From sequence record MW822007.1: a stretch of 64,000 bases of DNA; one strand, written 5' to 3'. The notes beneath the pieces were generated by a model. That model was not told where the DNA came from, ran no database searches, and worked only from the letters and a program-made list of their open reading frames with translations. This document shows, in pieces, positions 298 to 4,530 of the stretch; position 1 is the first letter of the stretch; the number at the start of each line of letters is the position of its first letter. The position numbers were made by a program, and so were the translations under genes. The DNA is from Escherichia phage BF15.

Positions 298-606
298 TTA
301 GTCTTCTATGATATCTCTATCATATCCAAGTGAAATGAGAGTTTCTTTGAAGTGTTTAATGTTCTTTTGTCTAGAATCATTAATGAAAATGACTGGATAA
401 CGAATGTTAAGAGATGTGAATCCAGCGCGTTTAGCAAGAGATACAATCAGTGGACGATCATACTCAATCTTACCATTATTTGTAAGAACTTTATAGAAAG
501 TAAAAGGAGCATTGAGCTCCTTTAGAAGTTTTGTAACTGATTGACATCCAGGACAACGACCTACTTCATCTGGAATTCCATAGACTTCAATCTTGTTTTG
601 TTTCAC
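298..606 (-). CDS. nrdH: glutaredoxin/NrdH-like redoxin
   Basis: CPGC active-site motif near N-terminus, about 100 aa, lies beside nrdG as in T4. Confidence 0.55.
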   Translation of the reverse strand: MKQNKIEVYGIPDEVGRCPGCQSVTKLLKELNAPFTFYKVLTNNGKIEYDRPLIVSLAKRAGFTSLNIRYPVIFINDSRQKNIKHFKETLISLGYDRDIIED

Positions 607-608
607 AA

Positions 609-821
609 CTATTCCTTACTAAGAGCAGCATTCAGCTTGTTAGTAATTTTATCCAGACGCTCATTGAACTCACTAGAAGATAAGCCCTTTTCTGGAGAAA
701 TCAAACTAATCACGAAAAATATAGCAATAAAAGGAATAAGGAAAATAGCTCCAACTGCCATAAACAGAAAGAATGTTACAGTTGTAAGAAAATCAGCTAA
801 ACCTTTACGAAATTTATACAT
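609..821 (-). CDS. small membrane protein
   Basis: 70 aa ORF with one long hydrophobic segment (FFLFMAVGAIFLIPFIAIFFVISLI). Confidence 0.4.
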   Translation of the reverse strand: MYKFRKGLADFLTTVTFFLFMAVGAIFLIPFIAIFFVISLISPEKGLSSSEFNERLDKITNKLNAALSKE

Positions 822-945: not shown

Positions 946-1416
946 TTAATCATGTTTCCACACCCCATCGATATTTGACCAAAGTCGCTGATTATCTGAT
1001 CCTCGCCACAGCTTTTTAGTCGGAAGATTTTTCTCATACTTCCCATCAATAATAACATCAACATATTTAAGCATTTCTAGTTGTTTAATATCTTCAAACT
1101 TATATCCTGTCCACAACCAAATGCTTTTATTGGGATAAAGATTTTTTACTGTTTGAACAATGCAATGAATCACGTCTCTGTTATCAGGATAAAGAGGGTC
1201 ACCTCCGGTTATAGTTAATCCTTCTATATAATCATTATTCAAACATTCAATCAATTGTTCTAGTGTTTCACCAGTGAATGGAATACCATTTCTAGCATTC
1301 CATGTTGATTTATTATAACACCCTTCGCATTTATGCAAACAACCTGTAACGAAAAGAACGGTCCTGCATCCAGGACCATTCACAAAGCAGCACGGGTATA
1401 TTCTGTCATAATTCAT
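946..1416 (-). CDS. nrdG: anaerobic ribonucleotide reductase activating protein (radical SAM)
   Basis: 156 aa; N-terminal Cys cluster CCFVNGPGC...C; 3-prime of nrdD as in T4. Confidence 0.85.
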   Translation of the reverse strand: MNYDRIYPCCFVNGPGCRTVLFVTGCLHKCEGCYNKSTWNARNGIPFTGETLEQLIECLNNDYIEGLTITGGDPLYPDNRDVIHCIVQTVKNLYPNKSIWLWTGYKFEDIKQLEMLKYVDVIIDGKYEKNLPTKKLWRGSDNQRLWSNIDGVWKHD

Positions 1417-2092
1417 TTATATATTTCCAATTATAGCCTTCAACACTTTTACGTTCGCCATTTAAACATTTTAAAATATTTCCTTTGCTAGAAATATTAA
1501 AATATTTTGCTGCGTCTGGTATATAATTAAATGTTTTTAAAAGAACACCATCTTTATATGCGCCAAATAAATTAAGAGTATATTTTTCTCGAAGACGTTG
1601 ATGTTTCCTTTTCATAACCTCAGGATTTGCATACGCCAACCTCAATGAATTTCTATGTTTTTCTTTTACTTCAGGTTTTTGCATTGCTAACTTAGTTAGC
1701 CTGGAAATTTTATTTCTAACTTCGTCAGTTTTCATTGCATTTGACAAATTTAATAAAGTTTTATTTCTAACTTCAGGTTTTTGCATTGCTAACTTAGTTA
1801 GTTCTCTATGTCTTTTTCTAAAATCGTCATCCTTCCATATATTTTTCGATAATTTTGACATAGAGCGGTGAAATAATTCCTTTTCACTGGAATACAATTT
1901 AAGAATTTCATCCAATTCATCTGTATTAAATCTATCGGTATTCGAGTTTATCATTCTATGAAAGGCATAACACATTTTACTATTACTTGTTTTAGCTAAA
2001 TAGTAATGAGCTAACGCGTGGTCATAATATGACAAATTAACAATATTCCATTTATCTGTTTTATATTCAGGAAATATAGATTTGGGAAGCAC
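1406..2092 (-). CDS. free-standing homing-endonuclease-like protein with four tandem ~17-aa basic repeats; catalytic motif not recognised
   Basis: repeats (L)TKLAMQKPEV(R/K)xK x4; inserted between nrdD and nrdG, overlaps nrdG start by 11 nt. Confidence 0.4.
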   Translation of the reverse strand: MLPKSIFPEYKTDKWNIVNLSYYDHALAHYYLAKTSNSKMCYAFHRMINSNTDRFNTDELDEILKLYSSEKELFHRSMSKLSKNIWKDDDFRKRHRELTKLAMQKPEVRNKTLLNLSNAMKTDEVRNKISRLTKLAMQKPEVKEKHRNSLRLAYANPEVMKRKHQRLREKYTLNLFGAYKDGVLLKTFNYIPDAAKYFNISSKGNILKCLNGERKSVEGYNWKYINEL

Positions 2093-2126
2093 GTGATGTG
2101 CTTCCGTTTTTCCTTTTATTTTAGGA

Positions 2127-2246
2127 TTATTATAATTTTTTTGTTATCAAATCAACATATGACAATAGTAAATCATTATTTTCTTCAAATATTAAAGATA
2201 ATTTATCATTAACAAAATCGCAAGGATAAAATCTATCATAATTCAT
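2127..2246 (-). pseudogene. diverged duplicate of the nrdG 5-prime end (39-codon ORF MNYDRFYPCDFVN...)
   Basis: ATG overlaps nrdD stop (ATGA); first 13 residues parallel NrdG MNYDRIYPCCFVN; the full nrdG lies 0.7 kb downstream. Confidence 0.5.
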
Positions 2247-4060
2247 TGGTGTTTAACCCTATGCATGATTTCTTTATTTTTACCGAGATTAAATCCGCGT
2301 TCGTTCGGATTTCCCAAATAACCACATGTTCTTCTTATGGTATTCATCTTTTTAGGATCAGTTTCTCCACAAATAGAACAAACAAATCCGTTTTCAGTAG
2401 GAGTCATTTCATGGGTACTTCCGCATGTAAAACATTTATCTACTGGCATATTAACACCAAAATAATCTAAATGTTGTGCAGCATAATCCCACACGGCCTC
2501 AAGACCTTTCAAGTTATTTTTCATATCAGGAAGTTCAACATAAGAAATGTGACCACCTGTCGCAATGAAATGATACGGCGCTTCACGAGAAATCTTTTCA
2601 AACGGAGTAATATTTTCTTCTACTGAAACATGGAAACTGTTAGTGTACCAACCTTTATCGGTAACATCTTTTACGCTTCCATATTTTTCCGTATCGAGTT
2701 TACAGAAGCGATAACAAAGGTTTTCAGCAGGAGTCGAATATAAACTAAAAGCAAATCCAGTTCTTTCAGTCCACTGTTTAAGATGAGCATTCATTTTAGT
2801 TAAAATTTCCTGTCCAATATCACGACCGACAAGAATATTCAATTCGTGAATACCAATGTATCCTAAAGACACTGAACTTCTACCGTTTTTAAATAACTCA
2901 ATTATGTCGTCATCAGGTTTAAGACGAACCCCGAATGCACCTTCTTGGTAAAGAATAGGAGCAACAGTCGCTTTAACTCCTTTTAAGGAACTAATTCTAC
3001 ACATCAAAGCTTCAAAACATAAATCCATTCGTTCATTAAATAGCTCAACAAATTTCTGTTCATTGAACTGTGTTCCAATATAAGAATCTAACGCGATGCG
3101 AGGAAGATTCAGTGTTACAACACCAAGATTATTACGTCCATCAAGAATTTCATTACCAGTCGAATCTTTCCATACGCTCAAGAAACTGCGGCAACCCATT
3201 GGAGAAACAGGAACAGATGAACCAGTGATAGCTTTATTGTTCTTAGCCGAAATGATGTCAGGATACATCCTTTTGCTTGCACACTCTAGAGCAAGCTGCT
3301 TAATATCATAGTTCGGATCGTCTTTATAAAGATTAACACCCTCTTCAACGAACATAACAAGCTTAGGGAAAATAGGAGTTATTCCATCACGACCAAGACC
3401 TTTAATACGATTTTTCAGAATTGCTTTCTGAATCATTCGTTCAGTCCAGTCAGTTCCCGTACCAAATGTAATTGTTACAAAAGGTGTTTGCCCGTTTGAA
3501 CTAAAGAGAGTATTTACTTCATATTCATAAGCTTGGAATGCATCGTATACGTCTTTTTCTGTTTTAGATTGAGCATAATTCAACGCATCAGCGATTTGCC
3601 ATTTTTCTGCATCCTCAATATGTTTTGCATAGGTGCGTTTAACATAAGGAGAAAGTACTTTATCTACATTCGCAAAAGTCGTTCCGCCGTATTGGTGAGA
3701 AGCAACCTGTGCAGTAATTTGTGCCATAATTGCAGTAGCAACGCCAATTGATTTAGGAGTTTCAATCTGCGCATTACCGAGCTTAAATCCGTTCTCAAGC
3801 ATTCCTTTTAAATCTACTAAACAGCAATTAGTAAATGGAAGAGCAGGGGAATAATCAATATCATGGAAATGAATAATTCCGCTTTCATGCGCTTTCATAA
3901 TAAAAGACGGGACCATATTTTTGGCAATGTGTTTAGACACAATACCAGCCATAAGGTCCCGTTGAGTTGGAAAAACACGAGAATCTTTATTAGCATTCTC
4001 GTTTAAAAGGTCTTTATCAGTTTTATGAATCAATCCTTCAATTTCTTTTTCAATTGTCAT
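2243..4060 (-). CDS. nrdD: anaerobic ribonucleoside-triphosphate reductase, intron-less
   Basis: 605 aa continuous ORF; glycyl-radical enzyme; C-terminal Cys cluster CFTCGS...CSICG. Confidence 0.9.
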   Translation of the reverse strand: MTIEKEIEGLIHKTDKDLLNENANKDSRVFPTQRDLMAGIVSKHIAKNMVPSFIMKAHESGIIHFHDIDYSPALPFTNCCLVDLKGMLENGFKLGNAQIETPKSIGVATAIMAQITAQVASHQYGGTTFANVDKVLSPYVKRTYAKHIEDAEKWQIADALNYAQSKTEKDVYDAFQAYEYEVNTLFSSNGQTPFVTITFGTGTDWTERMIQKAILKNRIKGLGRDGITPIFPKLVMFVEEGVNLYKDDPNYDIKQLALECASKRMYPDIISAKNNKAITGSSVPVSPMGCRSFLSVWKDSTGNEILDGRNNLGVVTLNLPRIALDSYIGTQFNEQKFVELFNERMDLCFEALMCRISSLKGVKATVAPILYQEGAFGVRLKPDDDIIELFKNGRSSVSLGYIGIHELNILVGRDIGQEILTKMNAHLKQWTERTGFAFSLYSTPAENLCYRFCKLDTEKYGSVKDVTDKGWYTNSFHVSVEENITPFEKISREAPYHFIATGGHISYVELPDMKNNLKGLEAVWDYAAQHLDYFGVNMPVDKCFTCGSTHEMTPTENGFVCSICGETDPKKMNTIRRTCGYLGNPNERGFNLGKNKEIMHRVKHQ

Positions 4061-4530
4061 TTTAAACTCTTTCTAAGCTGCTTCTTAAATGAAGCTATTA
4101 ATTGTGTTTTGGTGTCAGATTCATTATATTCAAATCCTCTTTGAAGCATCTCAGCCATCATTTCCTCTTTTCCTAAACGAGAAAATTCCTTTGATTTATC
4201 TCCAACGAAGTTAGGGTGAATATTATTTTGGGTGTAATCGGATTTTAAATAAGTAAGTAAATTTTCTAACCATTCAAGATAATCAACACCTTGTCCCTTT
4301 AAGCCAGAACGATTAAATTTGTGCTTCATTTGACCTTCTGCGGCATTGCATAGATTACAAAGCAATCCACGTACCTTTCCTGCTTTTGGTCCATTTAATT
4401 CATGATCATGGTCGAGGTGATTAGCTTGAACATCAGGATTTAGTTCTCGTTGGCAAATTAAGCATTTACCGTTTTGTGCATCATAAAATTTTTGTTTTTC
4501 TTCTTTATATAATTTGCCAGTCAATAACAT
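4057..4530 (-). CDS. 49: endonuclease VII (Holliday junction resolvase)
   Basis: 157 aa; Zn-binding CLIC...CNLC and HLDHDH motif; sequence matches T4 gp49 as I recall it. Confidence 0.85.
   Translation of the reverse strand: MLLTGKLYKEEKQKFYDAQNGKCLICQRELNPDVQANHLDHDHELNGPKAGKVRGLLCNLCNAAEGQMKHKFNRSGLKGQGVDYLEWLENLLTYLKSDYTQNNIHPNFVGDKSKEFSRLGKEEMMAEMLQRGFEYNESDTKTQLIASFKKQLRKSLK

Follow-up and report, generated by a model that had tools for sequence, protein, structure and literature searches.

In endonuclease-free T4-like phages, nrdD is joined to nrdG by an ATGA overlap. In Escherichia phage BF15 (record MW822007.1), of which a stretch of 64,000 nucleotides (nt) was analysed and is referred to here as the window, the identical overlap leads from nrdD into a different gene. 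The minus-strand order of this T4-like (Tequatrovirus) phage is nrdH–nrdG–X–nrdD–gene 49, where X occupies positions 1406-2246 and is read mechanically as two open reading frames (ORFs). The locus raises the question of what X is and how nrdG has stayed intact beside it. A preliminary description, made from the letters of the window, took X to be an endonuclease-like insertion in which a 39-codon ORF was a diverged relic of the nrdG 5' end, lying next to a 228-amino-acid (aa) DNA-binding protein with no recognisable nuclease motif.

Our comparisons indicate that X is very probably a frameshifted HNH homing endonuclease gene (HEG) that entered nrdG after codon 13, captured the nrdG start and supplied a recoded substitute 5' end. 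In this reading nrdG is intact because the 3' end of the inserted cassette carries the recoded substitute for codons 1-13. The broad outline of the preliminary description, an insertion of homing-endonuclease type between nrdD and nrdG flanked by a duplicated nrdG 5' end, has stood; its account of the two ORFs has not. The features needed for the argument are as follows.

2130-2246, minus strand: 38-aa ORF (39 codons including the stop), read as the N-terminal endonuclease fragment; codons 1-36, two out-of-frame codons, then TAATAA
2136-2142, minus strand (T7 on the plus strand): A7 homopolymer, the frameshift site, one base longer than in all relatives
1406-2129, minus strand: remaining endonuclease frame, codons 37-279 of the intact gene
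1406-2092, minus strand: 228-aa mechanical ORF opened by GTG
2243-4060, minus strand: nrdD, 605 aa, intron-less; its TGA stop and the endonuclease ATG overlap as ATGA
946-1416, minus strand: nrdG, 156 aa, intact

The 38-aa and 228-aa ORFs correspond to a single 279-aa gene in 21 related genomes. In the Yersinia phage PST, in 235Ecol030PP and in others, a continuous coding sequence of 279 aa begins on the nrdD stop and is annotated as mobC, homing endonuclease or mobile endonuclease. At the shift the window reads ACAAAAAAATT and PST reads ACAAAAAATT. A 121-nt query spanning this point matched 21 records, each one base shorter (A6) than the query, so that A7 is unique to the window, and deletion of one A gives a 279-aa protein with 3 residues different from PST MobC. 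Copies in Klebsiella phages, including that of phage Roth04, are likewise in frame and without the shift. Exact-pattern scans of IMG/VR and a metagenome collection gave zero matches to the A6 or the A7 segment, and thus no independent A7 copy and no further carriers. Between the window gene and the Klebsiella-phage copy the ratio of nonsynonymous to synonymous substitution rates (dN/dS) is 0.07, with dS about 1.0, indicating purifying selection. Judged from these alignments, the small ORF, which does begin on the nrdD stop as the preliminary description had it, is not a gene of its own: it consists of endonuclease codons 1-36, which a single extra A separates from the rest, and the whole of 1406-2246 is one free-standing HNH homing endonuclease gene of the T4 'Mob' type.

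Membership of the HNH family was overlooked in the preliminary description because the motif lies across the apparent GTG start, the HH pair coming immediately before it. Once the frame is read upstream of the GTG it gives …NNPKIKGKTEAHH|VLPKSIFPEY…N…NLSYYDHALAH, and the protein can be divided as follows.

2006-2098, minus strand: HNH catalytic motif EAHHVLPKS…N…NL…H…H (H50 H51 … N67 … H76 … H80); the GTG of the 228-aa ORF is codon 52
1604-1810, minus strand: four tandem basic repeats of 17-18 aa, xxxLxxxAxxxPEVxxK, a putative DNA-binding linker
1421-1549, minus strand: C-terminal NUMOD1 / I-HmuI-NUMOD-like helix-turn-helix module, sub-threshold in Pfam

The residues H50, H51, N67, H76 and H80 are invariant across 8 homologues, and a profile of the eight matches the McrA HNH domain (6ghc, E 0.003). 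The protein also matches PHROG 655 'homing endonuclease' (E 2.5e-36) and PHROG 12434 'HNH endonuclease' (E 4e-15); the PHROG 655 match begins at profile position 55 with the 228-aa ORF and at position 2 with the fused protein, and hence the N-terminus is missing from the former. BLASTP against T4 MobC gave E 1e-7, the aligned block in T4 MobC being ELHHIIPRS…NLVFLTYKAHYTAH, and T4 MobC itself passes the Pfam HNH model PF01844 (27.6 bits, cut-off 21.4). The four basic repeats of the 228-aa protein were correctly recognised in the preliminary description. Behind them, residues 235-272 score 21 bits with PF22083 (cut-off 27) and 17 bits with PF07453 (cut-off 22.8), both sub-threshold, while PF22083 is matched in 4/8 homologues with a best E of 1.9e-7. 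Pfam NUMOD3 gave no match for the window protein and matches one homologue.

A distant homologue, P0007, was observed on a metagenome contig from ENA (L039 1276-3343), where it overlaps and lies directly downstream of a 413-aa ORF with an I-HmuI-NUMOD-like match; the two form a possible tandem pair of endonuclease-like genes.

The window copy is a pseudogene, or else contains a one-base sequencing error, because the downstream ORF starts only after the catalytic HH pair. As written, it would give a 38-aa peptide and at best also a nuclease-dead DNA-binding fragment, because the GTG at 2092, the sole downstream start, comes after the HH pair and is enclosed in a stable hairpin.

2085-2105, minus strand: hairpin GGAAGCAC-AUCAC-GUGCUUCC, z = -6.2, which buries the GTG

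That A7 is an error of sequencing or assembly, the source phage having A6 and an intact, active endonuclease, is a distinct possibility, though the less likely state of affairs. Single-base homopolymer errors are the commonest artefact and A7 occurs in no other record. Set against this is a comparison with the nearest genome over 48 kb, with coding sequence 95-98% identical, in which A7 stands as an isolated 1-nt homopolymer length difference; such isolated differences are few and most indels fall within divergent stretches, and the assembly as a whole is therefore not prone to errors. An error would in any case concern the state of the window copy alone and not the identity of the element.

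It is very unlikely that A7 represents a programmed frameshift or transcriptional slippage device, keeping the endonuclease at a low level with full-length protein made only when polymerase or ribosome slips. The shift is located in a homopolymer, and T4 homing endonucleases are tightly down-regulated (PMC2988022); however, the shift is absent from the 21 relatives and from the Klebsiella-phage copies, and since the site is not conserved we do not regard it as a programmed device. The +1 correction would moreover have to take place at ACA-AAA-AAA-UUA, which has no obvious slippery geometry. A run of 7 A is also rather short for polymerases to slip on efficiently.

The hairpin deserves mention in its own right, as the active-site residues T-E-A-H-H-V-L-P are encoded within it. 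The window/PST type, the Klebsiella-phage type and a paralogue next to gene 46 of phage T6 share one and the same stem, down to its 5 wobble positions, and the three homologues vary only in the wobble bases of the loop His codons. Over the stretch of identical amino acids, wobble variation was found at 0/5 stem versus 6/11 non-stem positions (about p 0.06). The hairpin may have a regulatory role as RNA or as DNA.

How the gene came to begin where nrdG normally begins can be seen from the two copies of the nrdG 5' end and the overlap at its downstream border.

2208-2246, minus strand: left repeat copy, resident nrdG codons 1-13 (MNYDRFYPCDFVN), now read as endonuclease codons 1-13 with the start and coupling site
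1378-1416, minus strand: right repeat copy, read as cassette-borne, recoded nrdG codons 1-13 (MNYDRIYPCCFVN, the 'CC allele'); working nrdG 5' end
1406-1416, minus strand: 11-nt overlap ATGAATTATGA, the last endonuclease codons N-E-L-stop over the nrdG start

The parallel drawn in the preliminary description between the small ORF and the NrdG N-terminus is real, with 11/13 residues identical between MNYDRFYPCDFVN and MNYDRIYPCCFVN. It had also proposed aligning the two DNA copies and comparing the junction across T4-like genomes. Alignment of 2208-2246 with 1378-1416 gave 30/39 identical positions; a repeat finder reports a 41-nt direct repeat of 78% identity with the copies 830 nt (0.83 kb) apart, rather than 0.7 kb as first given. 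The endonuclease-free junctions (F1 and ten IMG/VR contigs) read …CACCA-ATGAATTATGATAGA(T/A)TTTATCCTTGCGATTTTGT(G/T)AAT-GG…, encoding MNYDR(F/I)YPCDFVN. The left copy is identical at 39/39 nt to the endonuclease-free allele L009 and at 38/39 to F1. The right copy is only 77-82% identical to the endonuclease-free alleles, and its differences from F1, an F-type allele, are eight clustered positions within nt 12-30 that include F6I and D10C. The two copies do therefore differ, as had been stated, but it is the one on the functional nrdG that is diverged, while the copy at the endonuclease start is of resident type. The junction comparison likewise confirmed a sporadic endonuclease insertion, although one consisting of a single 279-aa gene that begins with the resident allele.

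Downstream of the right copy the nrdG sequence returns at once to that of its relatives. From nt 40 to 471 it is 92-100% identical to endonuclease-free phages, so the foreign piece is a sharply bounded 39 nt; against F1 the identity over the same range is 98-100% per bin, and 99.1% over codons 14-156. No graded co-conversion tract was found in the window nrdG beyond nt 39. The earlier proposal of gene conversion that co-transferred flanking donor DNA thus holds insofar as donor-derived sequence travelled with the gene, but this was a bounded 39-nt piece of the cassette and not a graded tract.

These data also bear on two other accounts of the N-terminus. One, in which an NrdG-like N-terminus is intrinsic to Mob-type endonucleases and says nothing about the insertion site, starts from T4 MobD, which lies at an unrelated locus and begins MNYTKVYNNL, and from T4 MobC, which begins MNYDRIYSNL. 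We consider it most improbable: at 39/39 nt the window gene agrees with an endonuclease-free nrdG allele, and in Klebsiella phages the agreement switches to the local allele, residues 2-13 are absent from homologues at other loci, and the closest paralogues (T6, P0004, P0007, P0008) have unrelated N-termini. The other, the free-standing, decaying nrdG 5' duplicate of the preliminary description, left by co-conversion beside a motif-less 228-aa DNA-binding protein, fits the separation of the ORFs in the window and the lack of the HH pair in the 228-aa ORF, but scarcely survives, since the ORF is continuous in 21/21 relatives (which refutes it), residues 14-36 of the small ORF align with the N-terminal helices of paralogues elsewhere, PHROG 655 is matched almost from its first position by the fused protein, and the small-ORF DNA is the undiverged copy.

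The limits of the mobile piece can be drawn from a second lineage with the same layout. The endonuclease of the Klebsiella phage Roth04 has 86% protein identity to the window type. Its left copy is identical at 39/39 positions not to the window allele but to the local endonuclease-free allele MNFDRIYPSDFVN (L024, L033). Its nrdG begins with the cassette allele MNYDRIYPCCFVN, which is 87% identical to the right copy of the window and 74% to L024; from nt 40 the Roth04 nrdG is 77-97% identical per bin to that of L024, and 91% over codons 14-156. The remaining nrdG of the window and Roth04 lineages is only 68% identical. From this two-lineage comparison, in which the left copy is always the local one, the cassette comprises endonuclease codons 14-279 and the substitute nrdG codons 1-13, placed in frame after resident codon 13.

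The Klebsiella-type phages were seen to have an extra 77-aa ORF overlapping the nrdD 3' end and the start of nrdG (or of the endonuclease). It is located at L002 2436-2669 and at 2296-2529 in both L024 and L033, and occurs with or without the endonuclease.

A scheme for the insertion can be proposed on the basis of this arrangement. Translation of the endonuclease would be coupled to nrdD via the former initiation site of nrdG, and translation of nrdG to the endonuclease via the 11-nt overlap. The enzyme would cut genomes that lack the endonuclease, within or close to the 5' region of nrdG, and repair would use as its arms nrdD with the left nrdG-like copy on one side and nrdG from codon 14 on the other, copying in the HEG together with the substitute 5' end. 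A resident-type copy serving as the upstream homology arm would explain why the left copy always matches the local allele. The 8 substitutions at nt 12-30 and the interruption after codon 13 would protect carriers from re-cleavage, and might also reduce deletion between the repeats. Both the cleavage specificity and the homing of the endonuclease are presumed in this scheme.

Several points weigh against this insertion reading or parts of it. The free-standing endonucleases of T4 often cut hundreds of bases from their own gene, and the cut site need not coincide with codon 13. Between the E. coli and Klebsiella phages dS is ~1.0 for the HEG and 1.45 for nrdG; as the former is not much below the latter, recent transfer between the lineages is not proven. 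Since the CC allele is also found beside segH, and in two phages without any endonuclease at this site (see below), it may be an older polymorphism or a SegH-related allele instead of an immunity patch made for the HEG. Whether the shift in the window copy is real or an error counts here as well. The Pfam HNH models gave no match at E<=1 for either the 279-aa or the 228-aa protein, for which reason membership was established through the family profile, the PHROGs and T4 MobC. For the beta-beta-alpha-metal fold of HNH enzymes, an AlphaFold model built on an 8-sequence alignment was consulted; it is mediocre, with an overall confidence (pLDDT) of 68 that rises to 81-92 over residues 11-120; at this confidence it shows two strands, 47-51 and 68-72, with a helix after them, and its top fold match, I-HmuI (1u3e, prob 0.93), has E 0.31 and is not significant. 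In the literature no cleavage or homing data were found for the window endonuclease, and a 2010 review (PMC2988022), which lists T4 mobC as a free-standing HNH gene at nrdG/nrdD, gives its activity as 'ND' and its target as unknown.

The distribution of the gene is sporadic and its position constant. A megablast search with 900-2400 matched 824 phage records, of which only 28 covered the whole query; most of the others match nrdG and nrdD only, and so lack the insert. The window-type gene was found in 31 records, always between nrdD and nrdG, compared with 563 records in which the junction is uninterrupted. The 31 carriers are 21 Escherichia, Yersinia, Shigella and Salmonella phages and 10 Klebsiella phages. 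Other records have segH or a T4-type mobC in the nrdD/nrdG slot, which, with the window type, therefore hosts at least three different endonuclease genes.

The CC allele was surveyed in the best 60 records carrying it, every one of them with 95% identity or more across nrdG nt 1-80. The window-type HNH gene, segH or an unnamed ORF abuts nrdG in 58 of these 60. The other two, U5 (L040) and Shigella phage ESh24 (L041), are endonuclease-free, with a normal nrdD 3' end directly upstream; they may preserve an ancestral resistant allele, or may have lost the cassette by exact deletion between its 11-nt ATGAATTATGA repeats. Such linkage is in keeping with an immunity or co-conversion patch, but is no proof that this endonuclease recognises that sequence.

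Around the locus, the following genes complete the neighbourhood.

298-606, minus strand: nrdH
609-821, minus strand: 55.8
4057-4530, minus strand: gene 49

Promoters found in a scan of 900-2700 for Sigma-70 promoters and terminators were no more than the shuffled expectation. The nrdD of 235Ecol030PP, the closest relative across the region (L037 2257-5119), is about 1 kb longer at the point that corresponds to window position ~3525, where it carries the nrdD group I intron with I-TevII.

The analysis corrects a likely mis-annotation, in that two ORFs without a nuclease motif become one frameshifted HNH homing endonuclease gene, and adds to T4 mobC and segH a third distinct endonuclease at the T-even nrdD/nrdG junction. 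The element itself is already known as an annotated putative homing endonuclease in relatives, whereas its insertion architecture is probably under-described; nothing specific on a captured start with a recoded substitute was found in the literature covered, which did not include Sandegren et al. 2005 on the mobC/segH locus, where the duplicated start may already be described. The wider interest lies in how a free-standing endonuclease can sit inside a coding sequence, capturing the host start and supplying a recoded replacement, an arrangement seen independently at gene 46. Few targets of Mob-type enzymes are known as yet; for this one the proposed scheme predicts a cut within the 5' region of nrdG, to which D-type alleles would be sensitive and CC-type alleles resistant. 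The A7 allele would offer a ready-made null for homing comparisons.

Among known systems, T4 mobC is the nearest in position. It occupies the identical slot, its start overlaps the nrdD stop, its last codons …(N/D)EL-stop lie over ATGAATTATGA at the nrdG start, and its product combines an HNH motif with a C-terminal GY.WKY module. In contrast to the window gene it encodes 210 rather than 279 aa, lacks the four PEV repeats, and lies beside a D-type and not a CC-type nrdG 5' end; the BLASTP similarity covers 60 residues at 38%. With similarity over 60 residues, and nucleotides essentially unalignable except at both junctions, the window gene was ruled out as an orthologue of T4 mobC. At its start T4 MobC has only about 7 nrdG-like codons (MNYDRIY), perhaps partly intrinsic to the family, and as T4 MobD at another locus also starts MNYTKVY, the match is ambiguous; T4 mobC was accordingly downgraded from a third clean example of captured codons to an ambiguous one.

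The T4 nrdG (L004 3947-4417) was observed to be a mosaic. Over nt 100-279 it has only 53-58% identity with the window and 75-87% with the Klebsiella-phage type, and in the 3' third 98-99% with the window; the patch, beside a T4-type mobC, resembles a co-conversion tract from a distant donor.

SegH shares the nrdD/nrdG slot and the linkage to a CC-type nrdG 5' allele. Unlike the window gene it belongs to the GIY-YIG family, uses its own start with no nrdG-derived N-terminus, and is accompanied by an altered nrdD 3' end instead of a duplicated nrdG start. The gene takes the place of mobC in T6, RB3 and e11/2, according to Sandegren et al. 2005 as cited in PMC2988022, and a 2022 preprint also reports that segH replaces MobC in some genomes.

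The closest parallel in architecture is the T6 HNH paralogue upstream of gene 46 (L005 1474-2328), an uncharacterised gene annotated as hypothetical or as homing endonuclease and present in about 72 of 517 records. It is 35-39% identical to the window gene, with an identical GKTEAHHVLPKSIFPEY block and the same hairpin. In PST, where gene 46 is endonuclease-free, the gene starts GTGAAGAATTTTAAACTT|AATAGA… (L036, from 575). In T6 the same 18 nt with their upstream sequence start the endonuclease (VKNFKL|DINDEF…), which thus begins with gene 46's own first 6 codons and their resident GTG, and gene 46 follows the endonuclease after a new spacer with the recoded start ATGAAATCATTTAAACTT|AATAGA… (ATG-AAA-TCA…). 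As in the window, resident codons start the endonuclease and a recoded start is given to the target gene; the target is a different one, the captured segment is shorter (18 nt), and an 18-nt spacer with its own ribosome-binding region precedes the substitute start, where the window type has an overlap. Taking the nrdG and gene-46 types together, we suggest tentatively that there may be an HNH subfamily that invades coding genes without intron or intein, by in-frame insertion a few codons into the target, capture of its start and translational coupling, and a recoded, uncleavable 5' end.

Other Mob-type genes have reached comparable positions: in Aeromonas phage Aeh1 nrdA is split by MobE, and in T4 the gene 60/39 split is associated with MobA (PMC3653736, PMC3045599, bioRxiv 10.1101/2022.08.31.505936). 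They resemble the window gene as HNH cassettes inside essential genes of nucleotide metabolism or replication, with features that keep the host gene working. Their hosts are genes in two pieces that are reassembled as proteins, with ribosomal bypassing for gene 60, whereas duplication and recoding of its 5' end keep the window nrdG a single ORF.

A further likeness lies outside the phages, in fungal mitochondria, where Paquin, Laforest & Lang reportedly described in 1994 in-frame fusions of endonuclease ORFs to genes such as atp6, with duplication of a gene terminus. As in the window, there is said to be no intron or intein, the endonuclease continues the host codons without a change of frame, and the displaced gene end is made good by a foreign copy; the reported difference is that the 3' end is duplicated there and the endonuclease is usually of the GIY-YIG or LAGLIDADG type, while in the window it is the 5' end with the translation start. 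The window gene shows both traits of that arrangement, an in-frame fusion to resident codons and restoration of the host gene by a second copy of foreign origin.

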